Sequence record: SRR31156797_11646
Direction: 5' to 3' (one strand)
DNA: 44,541 nt
The notes under the pieces were generated by a model. It searched no databases, was not told the origin of the DNA, and was given only the letters and a program-made list of their open reading frames with translations. Below, one piece after another: positions 20,305 to 37,378 of this stretch. The position numbers and the translations under genes were made by a program. Position 1 is the stretch's first letter. Each line of letters begins with the position of its first letter.

Positions 20305-21399
20305 ATGATTGCCAAAGTTTCCTGTGCAGCCCTTATGGGCATCGATGCTTTTAAGGTTCAGCTCGAAGTTGATTTCTCCCGTTCCGGGATGCCCTGTTTT
20401 ACCATGGTTGGTCTTGCCGAGGGCGCTGTTAAAGAGTCCAAGGAGCGAGTGTTTTCCGCGCTCAAGAATTGTGGATTCAAGGTGCCACCAGCACGGATTA
20501 CCGTGAATCTGGCTCCGGCTGACGTCCGCAAGGCGGGCAGTGCCTATGATCTGCCGCTCGCCATTGGCATTCTGGTCGGTATAGGCATCATCAAACCAGA
20601 AAATGCTGATGGTTGGTTTATGGCGGGAGAACTGTCCTTGACTGGCGACCTCAAGTCTGTCCCCGGTGTCTTGCCTCTGGCGTTGGCGGCGCGACAGGAA
20701 TCCGGGAAGGGGATTATTGTCCCGGCTCCCAACGGGCGAGAGGGCGCTGTAGTCAAGGACATTCCGGTTATTGGTGCATCTGACCTTGGACAGGTCGTCC
20801 GTATGCTTTTGGGCGAGGAAGAAGTTGAACCTACAGCCGTGGACATCGATACTCTTTGGAATGAACGGCAGTCACATCGTGTGGATTTCGGTGAAGTTAA
20901 AGGGCAGGAACACGCCAAGCGCGCCATTGAAATTGCGGCGGCTGGCGGACATAATCTTTTGTTCATCGGGCCTCCCGGATCGGGAAAGACCATGCTTGCC
21001 AAACGTATTCCCACGGTGCTCCCACCTTTGCGTTTTGAAGAAGCGTTAGAAGTGACCAAGATATATTCCGTGGCCGGATTGCTTCAGAAAGACCGTGCCC
21101 TTATGGTCACCCGCCCATTCAGGACGCCCCATCATACCATTTCGGATGTAGGTCTCATCGGAGGCGGGCGATATCCTCAACCGGGAGAAACGTCCTTGGC
21201 ACATCGAGGGGTGCTTTTTCTTGATGAAATGCCTGAGTTCAAGAAGGCCGTTCTCGAAGTCTTGCGCCAACCGCTTGAAGATGGGGAAGTCTCGATTTCG
21301 CGTTCGCTCATGACGTTAAAATATCCGGCAGATGTAATGCTTGTGGCAGCCATGAACCCGTGTCCGTGCGGGTATATGTCAGACGATACGCATACGTGC
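20305..21399 (+). pseudogene. comM: ComM/YifB Mg-chelatase-like AAA+ ATPase, 5' fragment interrupted by transposon
   Basis: [61 protein letters not shown]; frame stops at TGT TAA (21400-21405) supplied by the transposon end. Confidence 0.95.
21395..21399 (+). repeat. 5-bp target-site duplication CGTGC (left copy)
   Basis: Identical to 37374-37378; removing the element and one copy restores the comM frame (HTC|TCSP). Confidence 0.93.
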
Positions 21400-21465
21400 T
21401 GTTAAAAATATTTTTATTTGATATTTAACAAAAATATTTGATAGCATGCTTACAATTATTTGAGA
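21400..21465 (+). repeat. Transposon left end with three TnsB-type sites
   Basis: TGT terminus; TATTTGATA at 21415 and 21435, TATTTGAGA at 21457 (20-22 bp period). Confidence 0.85.
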
Positions 21466-21497
21466 ATGAGGAAGCGAAAACACCTCCTCAGGTTCAC

Positions 21498-21525
21498 TTG
21501 CATATCTATTTTGATCAACTATAAT
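21498..21525 (+). promoter_or_regulatory. Sigma70-like promoter for the second tniQ
   Basis: TTGCAT-N16-TATAAT, ending 26 bp before the ATG at 21552. Confidence 0.55.
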
Positions 21526-21551
21526 AAAATATTAAACAAGCTAATCAATTG

Positions 21552-22316
21552 ATGTGGCCCATTCATCTTCATTTTCAGGAAGGCGAGTCGATATTTTCTT
21601 GGTTAATTAGGATGGCCATGGCAATGGGGACACGGCCACATTTGCTATGCCGGAGCTTTGTCAAAAGTCGACTTAACCGAGTAAGTGATTTTGACATAGA
21701 AATAACCACGGAAGAGTTCAGAATCGCATCCGCATTAACCGGCATCCATTTGAAACAATTTGAAAAAGCTTCTTTGAAAGACTACCATAAATTGTTTTTC
21801 AAGAACAGTCGTCAAAAAATAACATGGCTTACAAGCTCCATAAGTCTGCCTCCAACCAAACGGCTGGCAACTGTATGTCCATTATGCATGGCTAATGAAT
21901 CTATACCTCATTTAAAAAAAGACTGGAGGCTTACTTTTATAACAGTATGCCCAACTCATGCTGTACGACTCATAGATAAATGTCCACAATGCAATCACTT
22001 TTTTTATGCAGATCAAACGCTTTTTAAAATGGCAAATAAAAAGAGATGCGAAAGTTGTGGTTTTAAATTTGAAAAAATGTCAACTCCATGTACTAATGAA
22101 ATTTATTACTCAAACAAATTCTTCACAGATATTGATATGGATCCTTTAGCATGGAGGGCGTTCTATTTACTTGGCAGGCTTGTAGGTGAAGGGAGTTTAT
22201 ATAGACCAAAATTTGGTGAAGATACTGTTGCCAATCGACATATGATTTTGAAAAGAGCTTTTCTGGAATATGAACTTCTGTGTAACGACAGACGAGAAAA
22301 AAATGATGGCTTATAA
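21552..22316 (+). CDS. tniQ: TniQ-family protein (second copy, short)
   Basis: WPIH...GESIFSWLIR, VCPLC, WRLTFITVCPTH, CPQC, CESCGF: TniQ N-terminus and zinc ligands. Confidence 0.87.
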   Translation: MWPIHLHFQEGESIFSWLIRMAMAMGTRPHLLCRSFVKSRLNRVSDFDIEITTEEFRIASALTGIHLKQFEKASLKDYHKLFFKNSRQKITWLTSSISLPPTKRLATVCPLCMANESIPHLKKDWRLTFITVCPTHAVRLIDKCPQCNHFFYADQTLFKMANKKRCESCGFKFEKMSTPCTNEIYYSNKFFTDIDMDPLAWRAFYLLGRLVGEGSLYRPKFGEDTVANRHMILKRAFLEYELLCNDRREKNDGL

Positions 22317-22472
22317 GTTCTTTATTTTATTAGCCTGATTTTGGTGTCGGGGCCTTAAAATTTTAACAAGCAAGATCAATGTTGTCGTTTAATTTAATAA
22401 TTATCCGTCTTTTGACTGCATTATGTAGGAAATGAACAAGCGCACTGTATGTGTGCTTGTTTTTTTACATTC

Positions 22473-23381
22473 TTATAATGTCAATTCCCATAAGTGGAGC
22501 TGTCTATCGCCGGGAGCAACTTGTGTGTATTTTGTATTAAGTCCTAAAACTTTACAAATAAGTTTCGTATTGAAATTGGGAAATTCATGTCTGAAATTTT
22601 GTGTTGGAGGATTGTATCCTATTGGCTCACCTGCAAACAAAGCTTCATGTGTTAGGTCGTTCCGGGTTTGGCTAAGATCACTGATCTTTTTGTTTCCTGG
22701 TCGTATTTTCGCCCATTGCGGAAGTTCTACGTCATAGAAATCAGCCATCTTCACTGGGCGCTCTGCATGTGAGCCACTATCTGTAATCGCCCCTTTCGAA
22801 ACCGAAATGCGGTAAATCCCATCAAGCACTTTATACTGTGCGTCGAAGTGGTCCCACGGCATTTCATATGCACCGCTCAATAAGAACCAATGGAGGATGG
22901 CAAACATCTGCTTTCTTTCTTTGGAAGTGCTTTTTGAATAAAAATCATTAATACACTTCATGCCTATTTCACAGTCATTCCGTTTTGCTTTAAGGGGATG
23001 GAGTATGCAGGAAGAATGTGGGGTCTTGCAAAAATGCTGATAGCTTTCTGGCAAAAGATACCTTCCGAGCAAAAAACCATACCCCATTATCAAAAAACGA
23101 ATATGCTCGTCATCGATTTTTTCGCTCTCAAATGCGATTGAATGCGTAGAAGGTAAGAGGAAATATTTTTCAGGTAGAAGTGGGCCAGCTTGTTTAAAGT
23201 GATGTTTTTCAAGATGCGTTTGTTTTGCAGGCACATCGCGCACGGGGGGGTAGATCCATCCCCCTGCGACCTCCCAGGTTTGATATACTTCCTGAAGAAG
23301 TTCGTCGTAATCAGGTAAAGGGGATATTCTGATCCCATCAAACGAGAAGTTGTAATTGTTTATTAGAAATCCAAAGTTCAT
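22473..23381 (-). CDS. Hypothetical protein with C-terminal HEPN-like RxxxxH motif
   Basis: 302 aa; helical C-terminus FDAQYKVLDGIY...TRNDLTHE. Confidence 0.55.
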   Translation of the reverse strand: MNFGFLINNYNFSFDGIRISPLPDYDELLQEVYQTWEVAGGWIYPPVRDVPAKQTHLEKHHFKQAGPLLPEKYFLLPSTHSIAFESEKIDDEHIRFLIMGYGFLLGRYLLPESYQHFCKTPHSSCILHPLKAKRNDCEIGMKCINDFYSKSTSKERKQMFAILHWFLLSGAYEMPWDHFDAQYKVLDGIYRISVSKGAITDSGSHAERPVKMADFYDVELPQWAKIRPGNKKISDLSQTRNDLTHEALFAGEPIGYNPPTQNFRHEFPNFNTKLICKVLGLNTKYTQVAPGDRQLHLWELTL

Positions 23382-23693
23382 ACCTTGAGCTACTTCATTT
23401 AACCAACAGAAAAACTATTGTGATACAATTATTGTGTCGCAATAGTGATCGTTAATATTTTGAAATTTTTGAATTTCACCTGCAAAATAAGATCGATGGA
23501 AGCCAGAAAGAAGTCTGGGACTCCTGCTACAGCTTCCTTCGTCCACGAAACGTCCACTTAAAATCTTTATTACTCATCCACAAGATTAACATAAATCCGG
23601 AACACAAATAGTGGGCTATCGTGACTGTTTTGGAAAGTTCCTATAGCGGCAATAACCGAGCAAAACGTCAGAGAAGGATGCTGAGTAGGATTT

Positions 23694-24689
23694 TTACTTC
23701 GCCACAAATTTTAAAAAATAATTTCCATACGAATCTTTAATGTCGAGATTCCCACCGGCTTTCTGGGCATAGGACTCATTCTCGACATATATATTTATTC
23801 CAGTATCAAGGGGATACATTGCAATATTTCCAGCTTGATTTTTTGTAACCTTGTCCAGCCCTCTGTTGTTCCACGGGGCATATGCTAAATGTTCTGATGG
23901 TGCACAACCGAAGATGCTGAACTTAGGGTTTACGATATCTAAAAAATCCCAAGAGCGATTGGATTTTCTTCCATGGTGTGGCGCAAGCAAGACGGTTGCG
24001 TTTTCAACATCTTTTTTAAAGTCTTCTAAAATGGATTCCCATGCTTTATCATGTGAATCACCAGAAAATACAATTTTGCATCCAGCAGTTCGGTATGTCA
24101 CGACATACGAGGCATCGTTTATCGCTTCAGCGCTTTCTGAATCATTTGCGTCTGAGACTAATTGAGCTGTCGGGGAGGAGATCCAAAGCCCGTCACCTCC
24201 CCCTTTGCCGTCTTCTCCTCTGTTGAAAAATTTTCTTCTTGATCCTGCCAATGGAGATATTACGGTGATATTTTCATTTTCGCTAATTATATTGTCATAC
24301 CTATTCCAATCTTCTTCTTTAAACCTGTTACCTTCAGAAAAATCGGGCTTTTCTTTGCGCACGCCGGAATCCCAAAAATTAGTGATAGAAACTGTGTTCA
24401 TCAAATTGTCGATACCATCCATATGATCCATGTCAGGATGTGTCAGAATAAATCTGAAAATTGAAGTGACGTTGAGCTTATCCGTCAAAAAATCCACAGG
24501 ATTTGTCGGATGTTTACACATGCCAAAATTACCTCTAGCTGCTTTTCTTTCTAGAGCAATAAGTCCACGAGATTCATCAATTTTTTCTGCGTTTCCGTTA
24601 CAGATGTCTATGGCCGTAACATTACCATTATTGTGTTTAATGATATGACAGTCACCTTCTCCGCAATTTAAAATATGTATTTCAGCCAT
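23694..24689 (-). CDS. ComEC/Rec2-type metallo-beta-lactamase fold hydrolase (standalone, cytoplasmic)
   Basis: LNCGEGDC, ILTHPDMDHMDG, NDASYV, FSGDS, APHHG. Confidence 0.85.
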   Translation of the reverse strand: MAEIHILNCGEGDCHIIKHNNGNVTAIDICNGNAEKIDESRGLIALERKAARGNFGMCKHPTNPVDFLTDKLNVTSIFRFILTHPDMDHMDGIDNLMNTVSITNFWDSGVRKEKPDFSEGNRFKEEDWNRYDNIISENENITVISPLAGSRRKFFNRGEDGKGGGDGLWISSPTAQLVSDANDSESAEAINDASYVVTYRTAGCKIVFSGDSHDKAWESILEDFKKDVENATVLLAPHHGRKSNRSWDFLDIVNPKFSIFGCAPSEHLAYAPWNNRGLDKVTKNQAGNIAMYPLDTGINIYVENESYAQKAGGNLDIKDSYGNYFLKFVAK

Positions 24690-24793
24690 GACTATCCCAT
24701 TAATTTTGAGTTAAATTGTTGAATCGCGGTATGTATTGAGGGCTTTTTTAGAAAAACAATTAATGTGGTAAATCGGGGGCGATCTTTGTCGAG

Positions 24794-25768
24794 TTAATCA
24801 TCGTCTGCTTCGCTGGTGGCTACTTTAAAAGCAATCGGATGATGGTCTGAGTATTTCATTCTGAATTCTTTTCGTTGGTATGGATCCCCTATGTACGGTC
24901 TGTCCGATTCCTTCCAATATTTCCTCATCTCATCAATTAAGTTTATCACTTTGAACTGCTGATTTTTATGCATTTCATTAGCACTATACTCTAAATTGTA
25001 TAGAACATGGTCGTAGGGCTTAGGGCCTTTGGGATTTGTATTGGTGGGAATGCATGAGCCATTTAACGAAGTGAACCCTTTTGGTAAAATTGAATTTAAC
25101 TCCTCGCAATCTTCAATATTCATATCGCCAAGAATTACGTAATCTTTCTCTGGACCGTTCTGTTTATCAATCCATTTGAATATGGACTTAAACTCATGAG
25201 CACGACGTGTCCTTTTTTTAGAACTCCCTCCAGGTTGCAAATGGACTGATATGAAGACCAAATCACTATTTCCGGCCCTAAAAGAGAATGCATATGGCAC
25301 GCGTTCGTAATCAGGATTATCTGAGCGGTCATTGGCAATAAAACCGTGTGGCAAGCTCTCAGCAGGTGTCACACGGTTTGGTTTGTAAAATGCGACAAAC
25401 CACTCAGTAGCGGATGACTGTTTATGGTTTTCTGGACCGGTTCCGGTATCTTCTTCAGACAATACATAAGAAAAGCCTTCGACTGTCATGGCGTTAAAAA
25501 AGGCCTGAGCCTCTTTGTCGTTTTTATACGATGTGCCATCAGGATATTGACCCGAAAATGGGGGCGCGACTAATTCTTGGATGAATATCAGGTCGTATGG
25601 GGAAAGCAGCTTAGCTAATGCAGGATTGTCTCTATTTTTGAAATGCCCAAGAAATTGGATGTTAAACGACACTACCTCAAGCGATGTTGCAAACGCGCTG
25701 GTGTACATCCCAAATAGGATTACAAAACAGGATGTTATTATTGATGTGAGCCAAAATTTTTTACGCAT
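24794..25768 (-). CDS. Exported endonuclease/exonuclease/phosphatase (DNase I-like) protein
   Basis: Signal peptide ending SAFA; SFNIQ, IQEL, SVHL, GDMN, YDH, SDHHPI catalytic motifs. Confidence 0.85.
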   Translation of the reverse strand: MRKKFWLTSIITSCFVILFGMYTSAFATSLEVVSFNIQFLGHFKNRDNPALAKLLSPYDLIFIQELVAPPFSGQYPDGTSYKNDKEAQAFFNAMTVEGFSYVLSEEDTGTGPENHKQSSATEWFVAFYKPNRVTPAESLPHGFIANDRSDNPDYERVPYAFSFRAGNSDLVFISVHLQPGGSSKKRTRRAHEFKSIFKWIDKQNGPEKDYVILGDMNIEDCEELNSILPKGFTSLNGSCIPTNTNPKGPKPYDHVLYNLEYSANEMHKNQQFKVINLIDEMRKYWKESDRPYIGDPYQRKEFRMKYSDHHPIAFKVATSEADDD

Positions 25769-25861
25769 ATCAGTTCTCTTTACTTCTAAATAGGCGTTTG
25801 ACGTTCTTTTAAACAGGGTTCATATTAACCCGTGAACAATTACTCATGCAAGGAGAGAATA

Positions 25862-26797
25862 ATGCCAGGCGCATATGCACACCTTACCATGGTTAACAGA
25901 TTCAAAACCCCACAAGCCCTTGGGGCTGTGCAAGAACTTTCGTCGGAAAAGGCTTTTCAGATAATGCGATGGACCCGTTTTGTGGAACTGGGGGCGGTCA
26001 GTCCAGATTACCCTTATCTTTCCATAATGGATGAAGACGCCAAAATTTGGGCGGATGCCATGCATTACACAAGCGTTGGCGATCGCCTTAAAGCTGGAAT
26101 TGAGGCCCTCCGGGAAACAGAGCCCGTCACACAGAATAAGGCCTTTGCTTGGCTGCTTGGCTTTGCCTCGCACATTGCCATGGATTTGACGATTCACCCC
26201 GTTGTTGAACTGAAGGTTGGAGAATACGCGGAAAATGCCGCCGAGCACAGAACCTGTGAAATGAATCAGGATGTATTCATTTTCGAAGAAATGAATTTTG
26301 GGCCTCTGGCATTTGCCGAGTTCATTGATGCCGGCGTTGGTCGTTGTAATGCGGAAGATGACGAAGAGATGATCGATCGAGAGATCAAGCAAATCTGGAT
26401 GAAAATGCTTCGTAGAACGTCCTCTTCAGACCTCTTGGAGAATTTCCCTCCTGATATGGATAAGTGGCATCGCCGGTTCAAGATGATGGTCGATGACATT
26501 GCGGAGGAAACTCAGCGGCTGCCCTCAATCGCCCGTCACGCACTTGCCGGTACTGGTGTGGCTTATCCACTTCGGGAAGAGGTCGACAATACGTTTATCA
26601 CCGGCTTGGAAACACCTGAAGGCGAACGGATGGATTATACTCAGATATTCGACAAGGCGCAAAGTAGTGTAGCCTCTCTATGGTCATTGGTTACCCGAGG
26701 AGCATTCGGAATTGACAGTGAGTATGAGGATGCCATTCACGATTGGAATCTTGATACCGGTAAGCGTCCGGACGGCACGTTTGAATTCTGGAGGTAA
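25862..26797 (+). CDS. Zinc-dependent phospholipase C / P1-nuclease superfamily protein
   Basis: MPGAYAH, GAVSPDYPY, MHY, GFASHIAMDLTIHP, HRTCEMNQD; ATG 25862 after AGGAG; no signal peptide. Confidence 0.75.
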   Translation: MPGAYAHLTMVNRFKTPQALGAVQELSSEKAFQIMRWTRFVELGAVSPDYPYLSIMDEDAKIWADAMHYTSVGDRLKAGIEALRETEPVTQNKAFAWLLGFASHIAMDLTIHPVVELKVGEYAENAAEHRTCEMNQDVFIFEEMNFGPLAFAEFIDAGVGRCNAEDDEEMIDREIKQIWMKMLRRTSSSDLLENFPPDMDKWHRRFKMMVDDIAEETQRLPSIARHALAGTGVAYPLREEVDNTFITGLETPEGERMDYTQIFDKAQSSVASLWSLVTRGAFGIDSEYEDAIHDWNLDTGKRPDGTFEFWR

Positions 26798-26800
26798 TAA

Positions 26801-27223
26801 ATGAAACGGAAAGTTGTAAGCCTTGCCCTTCTCGCGTTCCTACTTTTTAGTTTCGGATGTGCTTGCCAACAGCATCAGCCTATGTACAGCCTATCCGTCG
26901 AACTCAACAAACTCACAACTGCGGCTGAAGGTTATGAACACTTCATGAAGCCGCCCGCCGACTTAAGTGACGAGGAATTTTTGAAAAAGGCTACAGAGCA
27001 CGATCCGAGGCTTCTGAAGCCCTTTGAGGATTTTAAGCTAGATGTCGTTCGAAAAGATGGTCACGTAAGCATTCTTGTTTGTTCAAAGGAAGACGGACGT
27101 GCACTTCTCCAAGACATCGGCTGCACCGGTGAGTTTGACCTGCACCTCTGGAAGACAAAATCTCCCGTATCTTGTGGTCAAGTCGATGACGGAATCTCTA
27201 TCTGCACCCCGAATAAGGAGTGA
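26801..27223 (+). CDS. Hypothetical Cys-rich lipoprotein
   Basis: MKRKVVSLALLAFLLFSFGC lipoprotein signal; five further Cys; GGAGG RBS in upstream gene. Confidence 0.7.
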   Translation: MKRKVVSLALLAFLLFSFGCACQQHQPMYSLSVELNKLTTAAEGYEHFMKPPADLSDEEFLKKATEHDPRLLKPFEDFKLDVVRKDGHVSILVCSKEDGRALLQDIGCTGEFDLHLWKTKSPVSCGQVDDGISICTPNKE

Positions 27224-27228
27224 TTTCA

Positions 27229-28269
27229 ATGTCTGTATTTTTTGAACACGAACAACTTATGGAGGCCCCGCCGATCAAGCGAGCGGCATACTCTGACCGA
27301 ACGGCGTGGCTGATGGGAGAACTCTCTAGATTAGTTTATGAAAGGCTTCCTAATGAACAAGAGTTGGAGGAATTGCTGGGCAAGCTGATTAAAGGCATCC
27401 AGGAAGACAAGTCGAAGGCAGAACTGAGTTTTATGGCTGCCGAGTTTGTAGCCTGCACTAATGAGACACAAGAAAGCCAGACGGACAAAGTCCTTAAGGG
27501 GCAAAATTTTGAACTGTTTCGTTCATACTCCATTGGCGGGACTGAATGCATGATTGTCAAAATCCCAGAAAGGGATGAGGTGAATTTTGCAGGCATGTTC
27601 GTGATCGTTTTCAGGGGCACCGAGCCGACGTCATTGGCAGATCTGAAAGCTGATGTGAGGGCGAACTTGACTGCTGCGCCAGGCGGAGGACGAGTTCATA
27701 AAGGTTTTTTGGACGCCTACAACAAGGTTGGAGAAATCCTCAAAGAGGATATCAAGGAAGCGGGCAACCTGCCAGTTTACATTGCGGGACATTCTCTTGG
27801 TGGTGCCCTTGCGCTAGTGGCCACTCGCTACATCGGAAGTGATAGCGTGGGGGCAACATACACCTTTGGCGGGCCCAGAGTTGGTGATGACGAATTCTTT
27901 GAGAATATCAAAACGCCAGTGTATAGAGTCGTAAACGCCGCTGATGGTGTAGCCAGGGTGCCATTTGGAGTAGGCTTGTCCATTGTGGTGACGGTTATCC
28001 GATTAATTCCTCTAAATGGAACCAAGAAGGTTTCTAAGTGGATAGCGCGATTGTTTAGTGGGTACACGCATTACGGCGACATGAAACTTCTTAGCGATCA
28101 TACAAAGAAGAAACCGGTCCAGGTGTTCTCTAGCCCGAGTATATTCAAGACTATGCTCCAGGTTGTTCTTCCTCGTTTAATGGCCACCATGGGAAAAGCA
28201 AGCTTTCAGGACCACAGTATGGATGGTTATTGTGAAAAATTGGCCAACTATGCAAAGAGAAGGATTTAA
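27229..28269 (+). CDS. Class 3 lipase (alpha/beta hydrolase)
   Basis: VFRGTE, VHKGF, GHSLGGALA, YTFGGPRVG, VVNAADGVARVP, DHSM; ATG 27229 after AAGGAG. Confidence 0.9.
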   Translation: MSVFFEHEQLMEAPPIKRAAYSDRTAWLMGELSRLVYERLPNEQELEELLGKLIKGIQEDKSKAELSFMAAEFVACTNETQESQTDKVLKGQNFELFRSYSIGGTECMIVKIPERDEVNFAGMFVIVFRGTEPTSLADLKADVRANLTAAPGGGRVHKGFLDAYNKVGEILKEDIKEAGNLPVYIAGHSLGGALALVATRYIGSDSVGATYTFGGPRVGDDEFFENIKTPVYRVVNAADGVARVPFGVGLSIVVTVIRLIPLNGTKKVSKWIARLFSGYTHYGDMKLLSDHTKKKPVQVFSSPSIFKTMLQVVLPRLMATMGKASFQDHSMDGYCEKLANYAKRRI

Positions 28270-29012
28270 TGGATTTCAAACTTGACCGCTATACTCTCAA
28301 CGCTCGCCTCGCGCCTATGCTGATCACGCTGATGCCAATCGGACTGGCAGTTCTTAGCTTGTTTCCCGCAAAGTCTTCAAACCTTGCTTTGGTGGTCGGC
28401 GTTGTGACTTACTGTGGGATGTTGGTCCTGCTGTCGAACTTGGGACGTGATTTGGGCAGAAATATGCAAACCAAACTTTTCAAAAAATGGGGCGGAAGCC
28501 CTACTTCGAAAATGCTGGATCCGAACGTTTCTCAAATGCCTAAAACGCAACTCGCAGCAATTCACTCCAGCTTAGAAAAGCTGACAGGTGTCTCACTTCC
28601 TGAGAATGCCAGTCCCGAGGAAAGAGTGGAGGTTTTTGAGACATGGACCACGTATTTAAGGACTAATACGAGAGGTCAAGATAACGGACAGTTTCGGCTG
28701 ATTCTATCCGAGAATATCAGTTTCGGTTTCCGGCGTAATCTTTATGGCCTTCGTTGGATTGGTTTTGTGCTGTCCATTCTTGCCCTTGGTATTGCAATTG
28801 GGGATCATACCATTATTACTTGGGGTGGAGAACCATGGCACACTGACATACTTGCTCTGCGACCAGTAGCAAAGGCTGCAACCCTTATTACAGCTTGGAC
28901 CGCCTTAGTATTTTTGTTTGTGGTACGGGAAAACTGGGTGAAAATTGCGGCTGAGGCTTATGCCAAGCAGCTTCTTGAAGCAGTGTTCGTCTTGAGCAAA
29001 GGTGAAGTGTAG
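28269..29012 (+). CDS. Hypothetical membrane protein, about 4 TM helices
   Basis: Two N-terminal and two C-terminal hydrophobic segments around a soluble domain (ENISFGFRRNLYG); TAATG overlap with lipase. Confidence 0.75.
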   Translation: MDFKLDRYTLNARLAPMLITLMPIGLAVLSLFPAKSSNLALVVGVVTYCGMLVLLSNLGRDLGRNMQTKLFKKWGGSPTSKMLDPNVSQMPKTQLAAIHSSLEKLTGVSLPENASPEERVEVFETWTTYLRTNTRGQDNGQFRLILSENISFGFRRNLYGLRWIGFVLSILALGIAIGDHTIITWGGEPWHTDILALRPVAKAATLITAWTALVFLFVVRENWVKIAAEAYAKQLLEAVFVLSKGEV

Positions 29013-29055
29013 TACCGTTTAACTGAAATACCCAAAAAACCCCAAGCCACTGCAA

Positions 29056-29095
29056 ACATTAAGGCTCTCTCGCAAGCGCAAGAAAGCCTTAATGT
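29056..29095. terminator. Hairpin between convergent cargo operons
   Basis: ACATTAAGGCT...AGCCTTAATGT 11-bp perfect outer stem. Confidence 0.6.
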
Positions 29096-29122
29096 GTAAG
29101 TGTTTAGGTTAAGAAGCATAAG

Positions 29123-31387
29123 TTATTCATGATTCATAATGATAACATTTATATCCATTTCTCCTACGATTAATTGAACTCCAGGACACCCATCCATCGA
29201 CAATGTGGACGACAATTCGGCCAATTGCCGCATATCGATACAGCTTGGCATTGAACTACATCCAGGCGGATGTGAATGCCATTCTCCCACGTAACGAATT
29301 TGGTCTAAGGTTCGGGCCATAGATTCTGTCACAAGATTCGTAAGACCTTCTGTTCCGCGCAGGAATTCTCTTTCGCTTTCTTTGCTGTCAGGAGGAGCCG
29401 GGAGCGCTTGAAGAATTTCAAGCTGCTTATTGGGCACATCAACGATCCCCATAAGAGCTCCTCCTGTTTCGCAGGGGAGCTTCATTTTTCGCATTCTTCT
29501 GATTTGCTTTTCAACAGGGGCAAGAATACGAACTCGCCATTTAGCTTCTTGAGCAATAGGCTCTTCTGTTAACAATGTTGTGGCCTGTACTGAGCCATCA
29601 GACTCCAATTGCCAAATTTTTAACCTCGCCTCATTGGTTTTCAAGACGTCGTTTATACCCATAGCCACAAGGCCGGACAAAATTTGAACAGTTGAGGCCG
29701 GAAGTTGAGTTGTAAGCGCCCGGCAGTCCCCAGAATAAGGTATCTGGCTAGGTTCTATAGTCAATAAATCAGACAAAGCAGGGGTTGTGAGGATGCTGTG
29801 GTAAAATGTGGCTTCAAGCGTCTTTAAATCAATTTTTCGAGCCATATCTTCAGCCATCAAAATCGCAGTATCTCCAACCGGGTTGTAAAAGAATGAAATC
29901 CGACGAGCTGAAACTGGAAGATCACAAAGGTTTCTGCTTGCCGCGATAGAGGCAGATGCATCCAAAATGAGATCCGCCTTTTCGGTCGCTTCCTTAAAGG
30001 GCTGTTCGTGGTCCCCTAAATTAAGGCAGTTGGCTTCTATAGAAGATGTTTTTAAACCGATGCAGTTCGTGACAAGTTTCGATGCCAAACCACTTGCCTT
30101 CGATGCATCCAAATTTTCCGTCGTCAATGCATGGCGCGCAAGATTGTGAGGGAATAAAATATCATTATCTACAATCGTCCATTCGAATCGTCCTTCGCGA
30201 GACAGCGACTCCGCGACCATTGACCCTATTGCGCCAGCTCCAACCAACACGACGCTCTTTGAATCGACTTCACTGTGGCCAGCCATCTTTGTTGCTAGGG
30301 TGGGATCAAAAGCGGCATGCACATTTCCCGCAATGATTTTAAAATTTTCAAAATCTTCGATTTCCCAGGGGGCGGAAGGGACGACCAACCCATATGTGCA
30401 GCTACTTTTTGTGGGATTTGGATATATTACATTCAATGCAACGCCAATGTCTCCAAGAGTATTATCTGCAGAGACAAAGGCAATCATACTCATGCCATCT
30501 ATTGCGCCTGTCCTTGGATGAATAATGGGCATCTTGAGGAGGAGGCCGAGCTTGGCTTCAAGCCTCTGGTATTTCCATTTATCCTGAATTTCTACCCAAT
30601 TTTTAATTCGAGTAGAGATCAAATCCAACAGGTTGACTCCTCTCTGATCAAGTTCACGGTGGAGATCTGCAAGATTGGAAGGAGTGCTACGAATTCGTTT
30701 CATCTTGGCTGGTTCAATCTCAATCGCGAGGAAAACACAAACTCCTTCAAGGTGTTTGTCTGGCCATTCGTTTGTTATGGGGAAACTTGAGAGATTGTTT
30801 CCACTCTGTTTGCTTCTAAAAAAAGCAAACAGATCGTATTGTTCTTCCGGTTCCAACGAAAATAGGTCTTGGGGGAAGGTGAAATTTGCTTGATCGGGAA
30901 AGAAATACGGATCAAGAGGCTGGTTGATTCCGTGAAATTCATCCCGCGCCGTCTTTTGAAACCACGTCACGATTCTCTGGAGCAGTTCTGCGGGGGTGTA
31001 TGTTAAAATTGCTTCAACCCAGGATCTGTCATCAATGCATAAACTATAAGGTGATCCGGCAGGCACAGTATTTTGATGAGGGGTGTCAGGGAAGTCTTCT
31101 CGATTACTTAATACAAACGGGGGGTAATTGTCCTCTCCGAAAATTATGGCGACAACTTCTTTCCTTTTTATATCATAAGCAGGCCGCTGCGGACATCCTG
31201 TTTGGACTTCAAGAAAAAGAACATCACCGCCCTTCTTAAAGGTGTAGGTTCCTAAAATCCGCGCGGTTCCGTCTCCATGAGCCTCAACGAACTGGTGGAA
31301 ATCAATAGATCGTGACTTTTCGAGGTCATCTTTGCTGATTTCCACCAGGATTTCTTTGGCTAAAAAAACCTCAAACCAGGGATGCAC
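29123..31387 (-). CDS. E2-E1(ThiF)-JAB fusion protein (Cap2-Cap3-like)
   Basis: E2: FPDTPHQN..SLCID; E1: LVGAGAIGS, VDNDILFPHNLARH, GDC; JAB: ETGG..GEWHSHP..PSCID; likely GTG start 31387 after GGAGG. Confidence 0.9.
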   Translation of the reverse strand: MHPWFEVFLAKEILVEISKDDLEKSRSIDFHQFVEAHGDGTARILGTYTFKKGGDVLFLEVQTGCPQRPAYDIKRKEVVAIIFGEDNYPPFVLSNREDFPDTPHQNTVPAGSPYSLCIDDRSWVEAILTYTPAELLQRIVTWFQKTARDEFHGINQPLDPYFFPDQANFTFPQDLFSLEPEEQYDLFAFFRSKQSGNNLSSFPITNEWPDKHLEGVCVFLAIEIEPAKMKRIRSTPSNLADLHRELDQRGVNLLDLISTRIKNWVEIQDKWKYQRLEAKLGLLLKMPIIHPRTGAIDGMSMIAFVSADNTLGDIGVALNVIYPNPTKSSCTYGLVVPSAPWEIEDFENFKIIAGNVHAAFDPTLATKMAGHSEVDSKSVVLVGAGAIGSMVAESLSREGRFEWTIVDNDILFPHNLARHALTTENLDASKASGLASKLVTNCIGLKTSSIEANCLNLGDHEQPFKEATEKADLILDASASIAASRNLCDLPVSARRISFFYNPVGDTAILMAEDMARKIDLKTLEATFYHSILTTPALSDLLTIEPSQIPYSGDCRALTTQLPASTVQILSGLVAMGINDVLKTNEARLKIWQLESDGSVQATTLLTEEPIAQEAKWRVRILAPVEKQIRRMRKMKLPCETGGALMGIVDVPNKQLEILQALPAPPDSKESEREFLRGTEGLTNLVTESMARTLDQIRYVGEWHSHPPGCSSMPSCIDMRQLAELSSTLSMDGCPGVQLIVGEMDINVIIMNHE

Positions 31388-31388
31388 A

Positions 31389-32525
31389 TCAGCCTCCCCG
31401 AGACTCGGAAGAGGTCGTTGTGCCGATCGCACTTGGAGTAATGACATCACACGCAGCACCATACTTGGTGATGTCGATGTGGAGCGGTTTTAGACTCTTA
31501 ATGGAAGGATGCTCCATTGTTACTTTGAATTCACCGTCTTTGCCTTTGATTACGCCCTTATAATACGCAGCTGCCTGACGATGAGGGGGATATTTATCCT
31601 TGTCAGCTTCAGTTCCCTTTTTAGGAATAGGTTTACTCGGGGAGACGATGATTGCGCCAGCTTGCCCCTGCGATTCGATGAGCCACTTAACATTAGGAAT
31701 GGGGAGAACTTTGTCTTTTTTCTCACGCTCTTTCTCATCAGCATTCAGTGCTTTATATGAGCAGTGGTGGAACAATTTAAGAATATCCCACTCCAACCTT
31801 TCTTCGTTGTTTTTCCGTTTGGTAGTCTGGGCAATCTTATCAAGAGTTTCAGAATCAACGTCAGAACCGAACAGAGCATATGTAGTAGAACGCCCTTCAA
31901 CAAAAGTAGCCTGAAATACGATGGAGTTTTGATTTCGGTCTTCAAGGCCGTCGTCAGATCGCCAGGCAAAGGGGCAATGAACAAAAAATTCAATAGCCTC
32001 AGCCCGATCTTTTGAATAGCCAGGTACGTATTTGCCTGCATCAACGATGCAGTCTTTTCGGCTTTCGATGGTGAGGTCGTACTTCTTTAAAAAGTCTTTC
32101 AAAGCTTCAGGGCGCGAAAAGACCTTAATGTCCTTCCCTTCACGAAGGCGATAGCGGGCTTCTTTACGGACTGTTTCGGCGTCCCCTTTAAGGTTCTTTT
32201 CGGTGAGAGCCTCAGCTGGCACCCAGAGTTCATTTATTCTCGGACGGCTGAGTTTTTGAGTGGATTTCAAACTTTTGAGTTCGAAATAGTCGCTGAATCC
32301 TTTGATGTGGTCTTCATCAACATGCGTGATGCAAACCACTTCAAAATCCTTTTGCTTGGCGCTGTAAAGAGCATTGTTCAGCTCTTTGGGCAAATCGCAC
32401 CTTTTGTCATCCTCTTCATCGGTGGCCATGTCCGCGAAATCAACTAGCATTAGTCTGCTATCTGCGAATCGGATAAGAGTGGTATCGGCGTTGCCAAGGG
32501 GATAGAATGTGAGTCGAGCTGACAT
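31389..32525 (-). CDS. MBL-fold metallohydrolase with C-terminal Gly-Gly tail
   Basis: FYPLGNADT, ITHVDEDHIKG, NQNSIV, GSD, FHHCS; ends SSESRGG; ATG 32525 after AGGAGG. Confidence 0.87.
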   Translation of the reverse strand: MSARLTFYPLGNADTTLIRFADSRLMLVDFADMATDEEDDKRCDLPKELNNALYSAKQKDFEVVCITHVDEDHIKGFSDYFELKSLKSTQKLSRPRINELWVPAEALTEKNLKGDAETVRKEARYRLREGKDIKVFSRPEALKDFLKKYDLTIESRKDCIVDAGKYVPGYSKDRAEAIEFFVHCPFAWRSDDGLEDRNQNSIVFQATFVEGRSTTYALFGSDVDSETLDKIAQTTKRKNNEERLEWDILKLFHHCSYKALNADEKEREKKDKVLPIPNVKWLIESQGQAGAIIVSPSKPIPKKGTEADKDKYPPHRQAAAYYKGVIKGKDGEFKVTMEHPSIKSLKPLHIDITKYGAACDVITPSAIGTTTSSESRGG

Positions 32526-32685
32526 GGGCCCTCCTGTGATATTTTTGTTCCTATTAAGTAATGCGGGTCTGGAGGTTGTCAACCGTTTGAAATACTAGAC
32601 TTTTGAAGTGTGTTTTATAGGCTAGGGGCTAATTCTCGCCTGCCCTATATTCATAGCTATTGAAATTATTCATCAGACCAAAAAT

Positions 32686-33840
32686 TCAGTTAAGTTCTTT
32701 GCGAATGATTGGAAATAGACTGCTATACTTACCTGGCCCAATCATTTCCCCATATATTTCTCTGCTAAACTTGGTGTGATTACGTCTTAGGAGTGAGATG
32801 ACATTGGTAACTTCAGCAACACTTGGTTGGTAGTAGGGGATCAAAAGATTTTGTCGAACCTCTTTGCTAAGCCAGTATGGTCTGGAATCTCTGGTCATAA
32901 TAATTGTATTGGCCGGGACACGGACCTTTTTGCAAGTCTCGATAAAACGTCTTGGCCAACTCTCAAATACCCAATTCAATATTCGCAAACAGTCGACACG
33001 AAAAGAGAGGGGGAGTAATTCGACTTCAGGATGTTCTGTGGAGTTTCGAAAAGTATGGTCCGCGTTAAGTTTTAACTTGTTGGCAACGTACTCATGAAAC
33101 TGTTGCCCGGCTTTTCTATATGCGAGGAAACTACACAGGACCCGCATACCCTCAAAGAATAAATGAGAGTATGGAATGTGTTTTTTGCCTAGGACGCCAT
33201 ATCCATTTTGATAGAAATGCATACACTTGCGTGTCATATGGACCAAATCTTCTGGAGCTTTATACACTCGCGTTGTTCGGAGATCGAAGCCGCATGTCGC
33301 GCACAGTGTAACTCCCACATCTTGCTTCAGTGACATGGCGGCGGGATGGACTTTTCGCAAATTGATTGGTGACCTACAAGAAGGACACCGGTCATGTAAA
33401 AAGCACCCGTGAATTGCACAGCTAGTATAAAATGCTAAGCGCCATCTCTTCAAAAAATGTGGATGCCTAGCTTCTTTTAAACACGAAGGACAAAATTGAA
33501 GACTGGTTTTAGGGTAATTCGGTCGCCGTAGGCGTAAAGGTAATATCCACTTGACTTGAACAGCTATTTTTTGATTTTCAGATAGCTTGTCAGCATCGTG
33601 GTGAAAGGTAAGATTTTGAATGGCTTGGTAGCTCATTCCGGTTTTGTCTGCGAGCTTTTCAACAATTTTTGAGTTGCAGAATATATCAAGATCATTTTTC
33701 CAAATATCAGGGGCCTGAACTGTCAAGCGCATGAAGGTGTATGGGATTTGACCATGGGTTAATGCAGACCTTGATATCCAAGATGAGAGGAGTTCCCCGC
33801 GAAAAGGGCTGGGACGAATTGGCCAGAGAGTTTCGCCCAC
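32686..33840 (-). CDS. tniQ: TniQ/TnsD-family target selector
   Basis: WPIRPSPFRGELLSSWISR, FCPSC, WRLAFYTSCAIH, CPSC, CATCGFDL; follows tnsC. Confidence 0.92.
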   Translation of the reverse strand: MGETLWPIRPSPFRGELLSSWISRSALTHGQIPYTFMRLTVQAPDIWKNDLDIFCNSKIVEKLADKTGMSYQAIQNLTFHHDADKLSENQKIAVQVKWILPLRLRRPNYPKTSLQFCPSCLKEARHPHFLKRWRLAFYTSCAIHGCFLHDRCPSCRSPINLRKVHPAAMSLKQDVGVTLCATCGFDLRTTRVYKAPEDLVHMTRKCMHFYQNGYGVLGKKHIPYSHLFFEGMRVLCSFLAYRKAGQQFHEYVANKLKLNADHTFRNSTEHPEVELLPLSFRVDCLRILNWVFESWPRRFIETCKKVRVPANTIIMTRDSRPYWLSKEVRQNLLIPYYQPSVAEVTNVISLLRRNHTKFSREIYGEMIGPGKYSSLFPIIRKELN

Positions 33841-33843
33841 AGT

Positions 33844-34722
33844 TCACACTACTCCAGCTCGCTCTGAGGGGCGAGTCCATTCAAGCTGTCCCAAAAGCTG
33901 CTGAGAGATGCTCTCCTCGCCAGTTTTTATGGCTAAGATAGCGCATTTTGTTAATAGGTTTGATATCTCACCAATCGCCCCTTCGCTAAGGTCAAAAATT
34001 TGTCGGGCTATTTCATTTTCACTCAGGTTGGATGTTTTTTTCAATGGGAGAGTGTATTCGAAACTATCCAATAGCTGTAAATATTCTTCATTAAATTCCC
34101 ACTGAGGTAGTGGTGCCTGTTCAAAACGATTTGCTAATTGAGGATCATATTGAATTGCTCTGAAAGCTTCGATGGTACCAACTCCAACTAATGGTATTTT
34201 GAGCTCATTACCTAAAAACCTTAAGGTGTTTAAAAAGCGTCGTTGCTTGTTAAGCGATCCAGATATTATATTGTGTATCTCGTCAATTATGAAGATACGT
34301 GTTTTGACTGCTTCAAGAATTTTGATTGACTGTAGCTGTTTCTTAGCCAGCCTGTCAGACGGATTGTAGGGGGCATTCAATTTGTCTAACAGGAATGAAA
34401 AAAAGAGGTTTTCGTCTGGACCTTGTGGGGCTTGAATATACACTACAGGTATAAAAGCACTTTCTTGCTTGGGTGAGTTTTTAGCAGGATGCTTTGAACA
34501 AAATTCCTTAGCGATAGTTGTTTTGCCATTATTCGTTTCGCCGACAATTAGTAGATTAGGCATACGATTTTTGGGTGGATAATGAAAAAGAGTATCTAAC
34601 TGATCAAGTATGTCATTTGCCCTTTGATAACCAAACCATTTATCTTTCAGAATATAACGGAGTCGTTCTTCGTTTGGTAGCTCAAGTGCTGAACTAGCTG
34701 CTTTGCTCAAATGATTGCACAT
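33844..34722 (-). CDS. tnsC: TnsC/TniB AAA+ ATPase
   Basis: RMPNLLIVGETNNGKT, IIDEIHN, LGNEL, DPQLANRF. Confidence 0.94.
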   Translation of the reverse strand: MCNHLSKAASSALELPNEERLRYILKDKWFGYQRANDILDQLDTLFHYPPKNRMPNLLIVGETNNGKTTIAKEFCSKHPAKNSPKQESAFIPVVYIQAPQGPDENLFFSFLLDKLNAPYNPSDRLAKKQLQSIKILEAVKTRIFIIDEIHNIISGSLNKQRRFLNTLRFLGNELKIPLVGVGTIEAFRAIQYDPQLANRFEQAPLPQWEFNEEYLQLLDSFEYTLPLKKTSNLSENEIARQIFDLSEGAIGEISNLLTKCAILAIKTGEESISQQLLGQLEWTRPSERAGVV

Positions 34723-34725
34723 TAG

Positions 34726-36603
34726 TTACTCCCGGATGTCTTTGAACGGTTTCTTTTTCCTTTTTTTGGATGAGGCTGTTGAGGGAAGTGCCTTGGGGGG
34801 CTCTTTTAGCCTAAGCGATGAAGTTTTGATCTTTTGGGGGGAACGCTCGGCATTCCTGCGCGCTTTTTTCTTTTCTTTAGTGGACTTCTCGACGATTTTT
34901 TGCATCTCACTATATGCTCGGAATATTTCCCTTTCATTAACTTTTGATGCCCCATCCTCTCGAAGTTTTTTCGCTGCAGCACGTATGTCCCATATTGAAG
35001 CTGGGGGGTTTGTATTTTCCCTGTAGGGAATGCTGTAATAGTTGTCTTCTTTCGGGTCATAAAAAAATACATGACTCATATCTGTAGGGTTGTAACGCAC
35101 TAAAAATTTTCTTTTTGTTTTGCTAGTTGGTTTTACTGAGGCGTTGATCCAAGGTCGAAGTTCGTGGCTGTAATATTTAATGTTCTCGATAGAAATACCA
35201 TATGGCTGGATGGTCCTTTCTTTAAACGGCATAAAATCCAAGAGAATTCTGTCTGGATTAGTTGGAATTGGCGGTAAACCTCGTTCCAAACAATCACCAT
35301 TACCAGTTATGGCATTCTGATATACATTGTATGGCGTGTCTTTTATCGAGGAATGTATTTTGTGGTGGTATACATTGACAATGTAATTTACTAACCACTT
35401 TTCAAACTCTCGAATTGTTAAAGAGGATTCTTTTTCTGAGTCATACGATCCGCGCTCTATAATATTTGAAGAAGTACTCCCTGGTAGGGTGTGCACTTCT
35501 TCAGCTAATGTCCTAAAGAAACGTTCGACATGACCACCATATCTAGGGCTTGCAACGGGCCTCCATTGCAAAGTAATTCCATATTCATCACACGCACGAC
35601 GAAGGGCTTCAGCTCTGAAATCTTTGCCATTATCTACATGTATATTGTCCATCACACCGTAAACAGGCCAGTCTTTATTTGTGTAGTATTTCGCGATGGT
35701 TTTTTTCTTGGGAATAATTGAATGTGCAACGCACATTGCTACAGAAAAGCTGTTTGGAGGATCAAACGACAAATAATACCCAGTCACCATACGAGAAAAC
35801 ACGTCTAAAGCTAACGTTATATTGGGCCTCCCAATAGCTAGGCGGTATTTTTCATCAACGAGAATGACATCTAACTTTGTGTGGTCAATTTGAACAGTTG
35901 CAAGGGGCCAATCGGCTCCTGGGAATTTGCCGCGAATAGCCTTAAATCTTGATGCAGCCTTTGAGCCTTTGCGCTTTTCCTCCCTTATTTCTTCAGGCAG
36001 AGCTAAAATCCTATTTCGAATAGTGTTGGGATGTGGAGGTTTGATTCCTAGGTCTAAACATTTAGAGACTACTTTATCCGATACCGTTCGGATCGATTTC
36101 TTTTGCATCGAAAGATAATGGGTTTCAATGGCTTCGGAGATGATTTCTTCCACTTCAGACGAAAGTCTTCCTTTCCCTAAATCGGATCGGTGGCGTTTTA
36201 ACAAAGAGGAGCGTAAGCCCCCGGTAGATTCATACTGTTTGATCCATCTGTAAATAGTTGCAGGCCCATACCCTGTTTGCTTCGCTCGATTGATTACATC
36301 GAGATATGTCCTTGAGGGGTTTGATAAAAGGGGTTTGATGGTTTCAAATCGTTTGTTCGCCTGTTCCCAGTCTATATCTGATATAGTCGTTAAATCAGGC
36401 TTTCTAGCTCCCGAACTTTCAAATTGAATTTGATCGTTGGCCAAGTCGAACACACATGCTCTTTCAGTTGCGTGTGTTCGATTGTTCCTTATAAGTGCGT
36501 GTGTTGCGCTTTCAAGCAAAATGACTACATGAGAATTTCCTTTGTATGTGACCTCTTGTCCTATCTTGAGGTTAAATTGATTCTGTTTGCCATTTTGGAT
36601 CAT
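34726..36603 (-). CDS. tnsB: TnsB/TniA DDE transposase (Mu-like)
   Basis: HTH ATIYRWI; QIDHT, HVDNGKDF, GHVERFFRT catalytic triad; Mu C-terminal VRYNPTDMS; start 36603 (or 36618). Confidence 0.95.
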   Translation of the reverse strand: MIQNGKQNQFNLKIGQEVTYKGNSHVVILLESATHALIRNNRTHATERACVFDLANDQIQFESSGARKPDLTTISDIDWEQANKRFETIKPLLSNPSRTYLDVINRAKQTGYGPATIYRWIKQYESTGGLRSSLLKRHRSDLGKGRLSSEVEEIISEAIETHYLSMQKKSIRTVSDKVVSKCLDLGIKPPHPNTIRNRILALPEEIREEKRKGSKAASRFKAIRGKFPGADWPLATVQIDHTKLDVILVDEKYRLAIGRPNITLALDVFSRMVTGYYLSFDPPNSFSVAMCVAHSIIPKKKTIAKYYTNKDWPVYGVMDNIHVDNGKDFRAEALRRACDEYGITLQWRPVASPRYGGHVERFFRTLAEEVHTLPGSTSSNIIERGSYDSEKESSLTIREFEKWLVNYIVNVYHHKIHSSIKDTPYNVYQNAITGNGDCLERGLPPIPTNPDRILLDFMPFKERTIQPYGISIENIKYYSHELRPWINASVKPTSKTKRKFLVRYNPTDMSHVFFYDPKEDNYYSIPYRENTNPPASIWDIRAAAKKLREDGASKVNEREIFRAYSEMQKIVEKSTKEKKKARRNAERSPQKIKTSSLRLKEPPKALPSTASSKKRKKKPFKDIRE

Positions 36604-36604
36604 A

Positions 36605-37246
36605 TTATGACCTCTCATAAAATAAATGGGTGTTCATACTAAGGGGATCAAATATATCTATTTTTAATATTTTTTTCGCAACCATTTGCCATATGCAGTA
36701 AATGAGTTTCCCTCTTTTAGTAGAGTCGAATGCATAATAATCTGTAATATCCCTTGGAGTTGTAAGGCCATACTTTTCAATAGCCGACGTTATTAGTTGA
36801 GAATACTCTGTATCAATCTCCGAGAGTGAATAGCCTTTCAAAAACTTGATATTCTCCCATTGGATCGTGCGGATTTGTTTTTCAGTCGCAACTTTGAAGA
36901 ATAAGTCGTTGGCTCTAGAATAGGCAATTGCCGCCTTAAACTTCGGTAAAAAATCATCTTTCTTTTCATGCAATTCTGATGAGTACTTCACCTCATAGAG
37001 CACTTTTCGGCCATCGGAATGGGAAACCAGCACATCGGGCGTGTATGACCTTTTACGGCCATTGTAATCTGTAAATTCAATTTGCATTGGTTGGACCTGA
37101 AAATTTGTCACGTCCTCTCTGAATTCAAGTTGGATATAAAAATCTTGCTCAAGAGTAGACTCAAATTGAGCTTCTCCAGGATTTTTATTGCTGCTTACAA
37201 TCCCAGTAACATTTCTGTAGCTCTTAGGGATTTTTCTGACGGCCAT
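36605..37246 (-). CDS. tnsA: TnsA endonuclease
   Basis: FESTLEQD, QVQP, YTPDVLV, YEVKY (PD-D/ExK). Confidence 0.93.
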   Translation of the reverse strand: MAVRKIPKSYRNVTGIVSSNKNPGEAQFESTLEQDFYIQLEFREDVTNFQVQPMQIEFTDYNGRKRSYTPDVLVSHSDGRKVLYEVKYSSELHEKKDDFLPKFKAAIAYSRANDLFFKVATEKQIRTIQWENIKFLKGYSLSEIDTEYSQLITSAIEKYGLTTPRDITDYYAFDSTKRGKLIYCIWQMVAKKILKIDIFDPLSMNTHLFYERS

Positions 37247-37284
37247 GAAAATACTCGCATTTATTTTTAGATTTTTTCTAGAGA

Positions 37285-37373
37285 CATATCACAGTGCACG
37301 GATGACTATCAAATATTTATGTAAAAAGGGGGCGTATTTCTTATACAGCTATCATTTAATTATATTATTAACA
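37285..37373 (-). repeat. Transposon right end with TnsB-type sites
   Basis: Reverse strand TGTTAATAATATAATTAAATGATAG; inner AAATATTTGATAG (37306-37318) identical to left-end site 2; weaker CTGTGATATG at 37285-37294. Confidence 0.85.
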
Positions 37374-37378
37374 CGTGC
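37374..37378 (+). repeat. 5-bp target-site duplication CGTGC (right copy)
   Basis: Follows terminal ACA; matches 21395-21399. Confidence 0.93.

Follow-up and report, generated by a model that had tools for sequence, protein, structure and literature searches.

A Tn7-like element with two TniQ proteins and no detectable TnsF or TnsE at a separate site in comM

What makes Tn7-like elements useful, and sets them apart biologically, is the way they choose their targets. In a stretch of 44,541 nucleotides from sequence record SRR31156797_11646 (the window), such an element, a complete Tn7-like transposon of 15,974 bp, occupies positions 21400-37373 and interrupts comM after codon 398. It carries two genes of the TniQ family, placed at opposite ends, and no gene recognizable as TnsF, TnsE or Cas. 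The locus thus raises the question of how the element finds comM, and of what a second TniQ is for. The answer that we favor, with a probability of about one half, is that the operon-encoded protein, TniQ1, homes the element to comM, and that the second, TniQ2, is the adaptor of another pathway, in replacement of TnsE. Which TniQ reads comM, what DNA is bound and what TniQ2 targets are all points that we infer.

The element and its selector genes

The element has TGT...ACA termini; its first letters are TGTTAAAA and its last TTAACA. It is flanked by two copies of CGTGC, at 21395-21399 and 37374-37378. In the nearest, sister genome (G001), comM is uninterrupted and contains a single CGTGC, and the alignments of G001 with the left flank (98% identical) and the right flank (97%) overlap by exactly 5 bp. 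Because of this empty site, the boundaries and the 5-bp target-site duplication are proven, and not merely read from the repeats. The 5′ part of comM, up to codon 398 (20206-21399, plus strand), matches Pfam ChlI (7e-42) and Mg_chelatase (8.5e-82), both on 20206-21405. The 3′ part (37379-37813, plus strand) matches Mg_chelatase_C (6e-32, on 37391-37813), and the two parts are continuous in G001. An earlier note on this DNA, made from its letters, had described an intact Tn7-like element in comM with exact ends and a 5-bp duplication, a description that holds in full.

The left end (21400-21468, plus strand) consists of the TGT terminus and three adjoining TnsB-site-like repeats of about 22 bp, the third being weaker. 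The right end (37306-37373, minus strand) has the ACA terminus and two spaced repeats, at 37349-37373 and 37306-37328. The packed repeats thus lie at the end opposite tnsA, and those beside tnsA are spaced, as in the element of G059 described below; in canonical Tn7, the packed TnsB sites are at the tnsA (right) end.

The tns operon is on the minus strand, and its genes overlap or sit 3 bp apart. It comprises tnsA (36605-37246), encoding an endonuclease subunit of 213 aa (Pfam Tn7_TnsA-like_N, 8e-15; TnsA_C, 4e-8), tnsB (34726-36618), a DDE transposase of 630 aa (Pfam rve, Mu-transpos_C and HTH), tnsC (33844-34722), a short AAA+ protein of the TniB type, 292 aa long (Pfam TniB, 5e-72), and tniQ1 (32686-33840), a TniQ of 384 aa (Pfam TniQ, 1.1e-24) which we propose as the comM selector. 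The second gene, tniQ2, is divergent and points inward from the left end (21549-22316, plus strand; Pfam TniQ, 1.9e-20), starting 150 bp inside the terminus. TniQ2 is 255 aa long from the TTG at 21549, or 254 aa, as the earlier note had it, from the neighboring ATG at 21552. For both TniQ genes the Pfam matches bear out what had been read from the letters. TnsA with TnsB, TnsC/TniB with an operon TniQ, TGT...ACA termini with repeats, a 5-bp duplication and an oriented, site-specific insertion are all found together here, and the element is complete and probably active, a Tn7-like transposon that moves by cut and paste and belongs to the group related to Tn6022.

The note had also provided tniQ2 with its own promoter, TTGCAT-N16-TATAAT. 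This sequence is present (21498-21525, plus strand) and its −10 box is perfect, but the −35 box is weak, matching TTGACA at 3 of 6 positions, and the site is absent from the list returned by a promoter scan (8 sites found, 6.8 expected in shuffled sequences). The promoter is therefore unsupported beyond its −10 box. A terminator-like hairpin (22434-22462, plus strand) lies between tniQ2 and the convergent gene of a 302-aa protein.

TniQ1 and TniQ2 share 25% identity across 181 residues. AlphaFold2 models were obtained for both (pLDDT 79 for TniQ1 and 77 for TniQ2), and in Foldseek their best matches are TniQ/TnsD chains, with a probability of 1.0. The TniQ1 model resembles full-length TniQ/TnsD forms of 330-460 aa, and that of TniQ2 also resembles the minimal TniQ of type V-K. 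A prediction of the TniQ1-TniQ2 complex made without alignments scored 0.00, for a mark of 0.34, and is uninformative either way on binding.

In Tn6022, TniQ is accompanied by TnsF, and a tnsE gene lies on the opposite strand; on this the earlier note agrees with Faure et al. 2023 (PMC10293859; this paper, PMC11014353 and PMC8649781 are cited throughout for the parts of them that were covered). The absence of TnsF, TnsE and Cas, also claimed in the note, was confirmed by each search made. No model of these proteins matched any of the 15 element open reading frames (ORFs) scanned with Pfam, NCBIfam and PADLOC, Pfam TnsE_C included. No direct-repeat (CRISPR) array and no Rfam family were found. 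When the window was searched by tblastn with the TnsF proteins of two relatives, L072 and L093, nothing better than E = 0.18 was obtained; with a TnsE-like protein of relatives, the best match (E = 0.16) fell outside the element. The TnsF queries are the products of 481- and 479-aa genes which overlap the end of tniQ in L072 and L093, and they are 44% identical to each other. That of L072 matches 51 Acinetobacter plasmid records, and in A. baumannii pC13-2 the match comes directly after TnsA-TnsB-TniB-TniQ, at the position of orf3/TnsF, which validates the query. The orf3/TnsF protein is 481 aa long (PMC11014353). In the window, the gene next after tniQ1 encodes the MBL protein of a 6A-MBL system, and not TnsF.

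Two insertion sites within comM

The junction in the window lies 78 codons (about 230 bases) downstream of the Tn6022-type comM site. The earlier note had left the two undistinguished, and the element has to be assigned to a separate site. In the ComM of the window, the Walker B motif VLFLDE comprises residues 336-341, the junction comes after codon 398, and from the right end of the element it is 47 nt to the first codon of SGPLLDRIDL. The other site is exemplified by a relative, L017, for which both junctions are available: its target-site duplication, GGGGG, falls at GGG codons 319-321, and its right end is 48 nt from the first Walker B codon (VLFLDE). In either case it is the tnsA end that is turned toward the conserved box. 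The two comM sites have the gene, the orientation and the spacing in common, and differ by the conserved box. The SGPLLDRIDL box seems to resemble the arginine-finger box of related AAA+ proteins. As attachment sequence in the window we propose positions 37397-37450 (plus strand), 23-77 nt from the right end, which code for VQRY...SGPLLDRIDL; the proposal follows from the spacing and from conservation in three hosts. The Tn6022 site is described as overlapping the Walker B of comM (PMC10293859), so that the L017-type site fits that of Tn6022.

TniQ1 has one close relative (73% identical) in 5.8 billion clusters, all others being at most 32% identical. Species genomes scanned with a 5-row TniQ1 alignment gave 80 related loci; compared with the window, their TnsB proteins are 30-47% identical and their TnsC proteins up to 54%. 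comM lies at most 400 bp from tnsA in 13 of the 80, and each of these comM pieces begins within residues 309-324 of the window ComM. Partial evidence for this codon-320 site was found in two more loci, L047 (1.9-kb gap) and L073 (left junction only). L073 does not qualify as a minimal TnsF-less comM element, because its tnsA has no 3′ part of comM beside it, even though the left junction falls at the GGG codons. Distant relatives having a different operon TniQ sit at other sites.

TnsF was detectable by BLAST in only 2 of the 13 fetched relatives with comM adjoining tnsA at the Tn6022 position. The fetched stretch of the other 11 lacks both a TniQ2-type gene and any TnsF that could be detected, and some relatives at this site carry TniQ/TnsD-like proteins of 530-547 aa. 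TnsF-independent targeting of comM therefore seems common in the family, and the lack of TnsF, which the earlier note took as special, does not set the window apart.

The site used in the window is found occupied in two other hosts. The closest relative, L134, is on a metagenome contig (TnsA, TnsB, TnsC and TniQ1 75, 78, 88 and 73% identical); its host is different, the C-terminal part of ComM being 68% identical, and its junction with comM is 1 bp from the window point, in the same orientation. In Hymenobacter actinosclerus (L054, with the 5′ part of comM on another contig), both junctions were recovered, with the duplication TGTGC, 6 bp downstream and again in the same orientation. Two elements in unrelated hosts within 1 bp and 6 bp of the window point, all in one orientation, argue that the hit on comM is site-specific, and it is scarcely credible that comM was struck by chance, with no preference, a reading for which nothing was found. 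Mapping of relatives had been set in the earlier note as a test that could refute it, and the outcome places the closest relative at the same comM site. The window and L134 have in common only the core genes and a 6A-MBL cargo; over the 14.7 kb of L134, no further candidate selector appears to be shared.

TnsB and TnsC of the window are 41-45% and 38-39% identical, respectively, to those of the TnsF-bearing loci L072 and L093. In a quick TnsB+TnsC tree of 66 rows (LG+G4), the window and L134 were placed beside two TnsF-bearing loci, with an SH-aLRT support of 95 and flagged as a long-branch join. In a quick 29-row tree under the C20 mixture model, they formed an isolated long branch, and the window lineage as sister to the TnsF clade was lost. 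Both trees cover the loci with one complete, adjacent pair of TnsB and TnsC. As placement differs between models, we limit the claim to membership of the window lineage in a Tn6022-related assemblage.

In both trees, the sister of L054, at codon 400, is L025 (H. ruricola), at the codon-320 site; the two are 56% identical for TnsB, 64% for TnsC and 44% for TniQ. The codon-400 Hymenobacter element has a TniQ of 403 aa and an inward left-end protein of 592 aa with no Pfam match. Another pair, L017 and L023, both at codon 320 of comM, is 84-86% identical for TnsA, TnsB and TnsC and 47% for TniQ (394 versus 536 aa). This may reflect selector swapping, or a truncated gene in a metagenome-assembled genome.

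The left-end slot and the role of TniQ2

In L017, an inward-facing gene of 588 aa adjoins the left junction. Homologues of its product are present in 27 of the 79 other loci, 23 of them on the strand opposite to the tns operon; the window has no such homologue. The inward left-end protein of L073 (580 aa), weakly similar to it, matches Pfam TnsE_C (4.9e-8, over the cut-off). Since the inward left-end gene of relatives is TnsE, tniQ2 occupies the TnsE slot.

A full HMMER search of 1.84 billion representatives found 1,901 matches to TniQ2 at E≤1e-3 and only 6 at E≤1e-30; it replaced a word-indexed search that had given 98 candidates and none at E≤1e-3. Against plasmids, tblastn of TniQ2 returned generic TniQ matches only, at 30% identity or less. 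Eleven short TniQs (232-326 aa) align with TniQ2, and in the resulting 12-sequence alignment the zinc-finger Cys/His residues are invariant and a C-terminal helix motif is shared.

A counterpart of tniQ2, the source of one of these eleven proteins, was found in a Maridesulfovibrio chromosome (G059), 15 kb past a tnsA-B-C-tniQ operon. This gene, whose product is 40% identical to TniQ2 (E 1.9e-53), points inward from about 160 bp inside the left terminus of an element of 20.8 kb with three adjoining left-end repeats. The duplication, AGTAT, begins 1 bp past the stop codon of the lipoyl-synthase gene (lipA). No TnsE- or TnsF-like match was found in the element; a 191-aa ORF without Pfam match lies between its right terminus and tnsA, on the opposite strand (L102:3220-3795). 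The layout recurs, at the same lipA-adjacent flank, in another Maridesulfovibrio species (G400), where about 6.7 kb separate the shared right flank from tnsA. In the window, G059 and G400, the TniQ2-type gene is intact and faces inward at 150-190 bp from the terminus: the module has a conserved left-end position.

The two Maridesulfovibrio elements are 54, 50 and 50% identical for TnsA, TnsB and TnsC, 90% for the operon TniQ, and 36% for the TniQ2-type protein. At one and the same site, the operon TniQ is thus kept at 90% where TnsABC are at about 50% and the TniQ2-type protein at 36%, from which it follows that the attachment site goes with the operon TniQ. The TniQ2-type protein has changed no less than the core. 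The pair suggests that a selector module was exchanged between cores.

Applied to the window, TniQ1 would recognize the comM DNA coding for VQRY...SGPLLDRIDL, 23-77 nt from the right end, and would recruit TnsC. TnsAB would then insert the element about 47 nt upstream of the recognized box, in one orientation and with a 5-bp duplication. TniQ2, in the TnsE slot, would be an adaptor directing the same TnsABC to targets other than comM. The position of tniQ2 in that slot, together with the 90% versus 36% identities of the Maridesulfovibrio pair, is what makes us prefer this scheme to one in which both TniQs select comM jointly. Several observations weigh against it. TniQ1 is by its fold a core-only TniQ, and in Tn6022 a TniQ of this size depends on TnsF. 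With TnsB at 40-45% identity, the Maridesulfovibrio elements are remote, and carrying their logic over to the window is a step of inference. The best TniQ2 homologue is only 39% identical among the 1.84 billion representatives, and TniQ2-type genes are rare: a TniQ2 profile found a strong match in a single one of 77 genomes of TniQ1 relatives, the G059 gene (361 bits), whose 259-aa form was itself part of the profile. Finally, no TniQ2 match was found in the visible 14.7 kb of L134, a stretch that does not include its left end.

A broader scenario, which we hold more tentatively, joins the two lines of evidence. comM would offer two landing pads, one for Walker B and one for SGPLLDRIDL, both some 47-48 nt upstream of the conserved ATPase box concerned, between which lineages would have switched more than once, in the window lineage and in Hymenobacter (L025/L054). 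In the window lineage the switch would have gone with loss of TnsF and TnsE, leading to a TniQ-only, two-pathway design, where a TniQ of about 385 aa reads comM alone and dispersal depends on a minimal TniQ at the left end in place of TnsE.

The earlier note had offered two mechanisms for the dual TniQ. Of these, separate pathways are favored by the context. In the other, a heteromeric selector, TniQ2 would take the place of TnsF: TniQ1 would bridge to TnsC, and TniQ2 or a TniQ1-TniQ2 pair would read comM at codon 398. The core-only fold and size of TniQ1 fit this, since the Tn6022 TniQ, of like size at 369 aa (PMC10293859), cannot target comM without TnsF (PMC10293859; PMC11014353). The lack of TnsF in the window and the two intact zinc fingers of TniQ2 fit it as well. 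However, tniQ2 is not part of the operon but is found in the TnsE slot, at the opposite end and on the opposite strand, and the Maridesulfovibrio proteins that share one site have kept the operon TniQ and let the TniQ2-type protein diverge. Moreover, 11 of the 13 relatives at the Tn6022-type site show neither partner in the stretch fetched. We consider the heteromer unlikely on these grounds.

TniQ2 could instead be a regulator, a short TniQ competing for TnsC or capping TnsC filaments and so damping or timing transposition, maybe from a left-end promoter controlled by TnsB. It is smaller than the TniQ core of about 300 aa (PMC10293859), its model resembles the minimal V-K TniQ, and its putative promoter is 30 bp inside the TnsB-site repeats. 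Yet this promoter is weak by consensus, no precedent was found in the papers covered, and conservation at the TnsE slot is equally compatible with a selector, all of which leaves a regulator rather improbable. Slightly less probable still, TniQ2 could be a passenger with no function, or something that recombination between elements left behind. The patchy distribution is what such a gene would show: besides the single genome in 77, a TniQ2-type gene occurs at E≤1e-40 in 3 of 301 genomes of the G059 family, one being a broken fragment with no tns genes nearby, and the visible part of L134 has none. Against it, the ORF is intact, the zinc-finger Cys/His residues are conserved in all 12 aligned sequences, and the gene has kept its place and direction across three elements with TnsB identities of 40-50%. 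TniQ2 is also not a simple relic of a tandem copy, because its gene, with respect to the ends, faces the other way from the operon tniQ.

The broken fragment (L144, in G387, at about 12134-12600) is a TniQ2-type gene split in two frames, with no tnsABC within the 20 kb fetched, and has probably decayed. In the remaining 76 genomes, those of the other TniQ1 relatives, the TniQ2 profile gave at most 140 bits, on frames of 146-553 aa; those compared by position were the operon tniQ. In a Rhodocyclaceae element, another gene of the TniQ family (L077:15683-16519) follows the operon tniQ in inverted orientation, about 5 kb downstream, and is cut by the contig end; by score it is not of the TniQ2 family.

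Known systems, relatives and cargo

Two-TniQ elements as a class, and comM as a target, are already known. The window element shares with the Tn6022/AbaR comM islands of Acinetobacter a TnsA/TnsB transposase, a short TniB-type TnsC and a TniQ of about 370-385 aa in one operon, as well as the comM target, a tnsA end turned toward the 3′ part of comM and a 5-bp duplication. Unlike Tn6022, it has no TnsF (about 480-500 aa, after tniQ) and no opposite-strand TnsE; its site precedes the SGPLLDRIDL box and not Walker B, and a second TniQ fills the TnsE slot. Tn7 itself uses TnsABC with TnsD for attTn7 and with TnsE for plasmids, its right end facing the sequence that is read and insertion occurring tens of bp off. 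The logic proposed for the window is similar, one core machine with two alternative selectors. It differs in that the second selector is of the TniQ family and not TnsE, the target is intragenic so that the gene is inactivated, and TnsC is of the short TniB type.

Dual TniQ-TnsD loci, such as Tn6230 and the type I-B1 and I-F3 (Tn7017) CRISPR-associated transposons, also have two TniQ-family genes, read as two targeting options. They usually combine one protein of more than 400 aa with a smaller one, by in situ (tandem) duplication (PMC10293859). In contrast, the two proteins of the window, 384 and 255 aa long, share 25% identity; one gene lies at each end of the element, the strands differ, and there is no Cas partner. 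The earlier note had called two-TniQ elements often CRISPR-associated; two-TniQ loci make up 998 of 5,072, and they are not mainly CRISPR-associated (PMC10293859). Another comM-homing mobile element is Tsy, a tyrosine-recombinase element with an active TnsF, which enters comM at the Walker B region (PMC10293859); its machinery is unrelated and its site is not that of the window.

In the covered parts of PMC10293859, PMC11014353 and PMC8649781, which do not include the supplementary tables of the first two, where such loci may be listed, we found no description of a second comM site, of its repeated use, or of a TniQ in the TnsE slot of a Tn6022 relative lacking TnsF and TnsE. If the proposed scheme is true, the family retargets within one gene by means of a different conserved motif at equal spacing. 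TnsABC with a TniQ of 384 aa would then be a compact, protein-only system for a highly conserved bacterial site, with no TnsF, and the small TniQ would be a candidate substitute for TnsE. Annotation calls for caution too, as an element of the Tn7 type in comM need not be Tn6022-like in its selectors or its site.

G001, which provided the empty site, has a Tn7-like element of its own (L015, TnsB 46% identical to that of the window). There, a 647-aa ORF (L015:13738-15681, minus strand) matches both TniB (3.5e-78) and TniQ (1.5e-23), which suggests that TnsC and TniQ are naturally fused there, or that two genes are read through.

The cargo of the window element is, by its family matches, defence-like and anti-phage. 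Next to tniQ2 lies the gene of the 302-aa protein (22473-23381, minus strand), which has no Pfam, NCBIfam or PADLOC match; its Atlas neighbors are hypothetical proteins, and no homologue was found in the elements of relatives. It is followed by an MBL-fold protein, the PADLOC candidate defence PDC-M48B (23694-24689, minus strand; 9.1e-40). The interval 24794-29012 encodes an EEP-family nuclease (Pfam Exo_endo_phos, 1e-6), a zinc phospholipase-C-family protein (Zn_dep_PLPC, 2e-21), a 140-aa ORF, a class-3 lipase (Lipase_3, 1e-23) and a 247-aa ORF. Three cargo ORFs, of 302, 140 and 247 aa, are thus without family. A 6A-MBL anti-phage system (29123-32582, minus strand) completes the cargo, with an E2-E1-JAB fusion of 779 aa and an MBL-fold protein of 397 aa, both over the cut-off of their NCBIfam models (6A-MBL_cap2_3, 3.6e-174; 6A-MBL_enzyme, 5.7e-113). 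The pair is common to the window and L134 (L134:13409-16854), with 53% and 67% protein identity, and its strand relative to the tns operon is the same in the window and opposite in L134.

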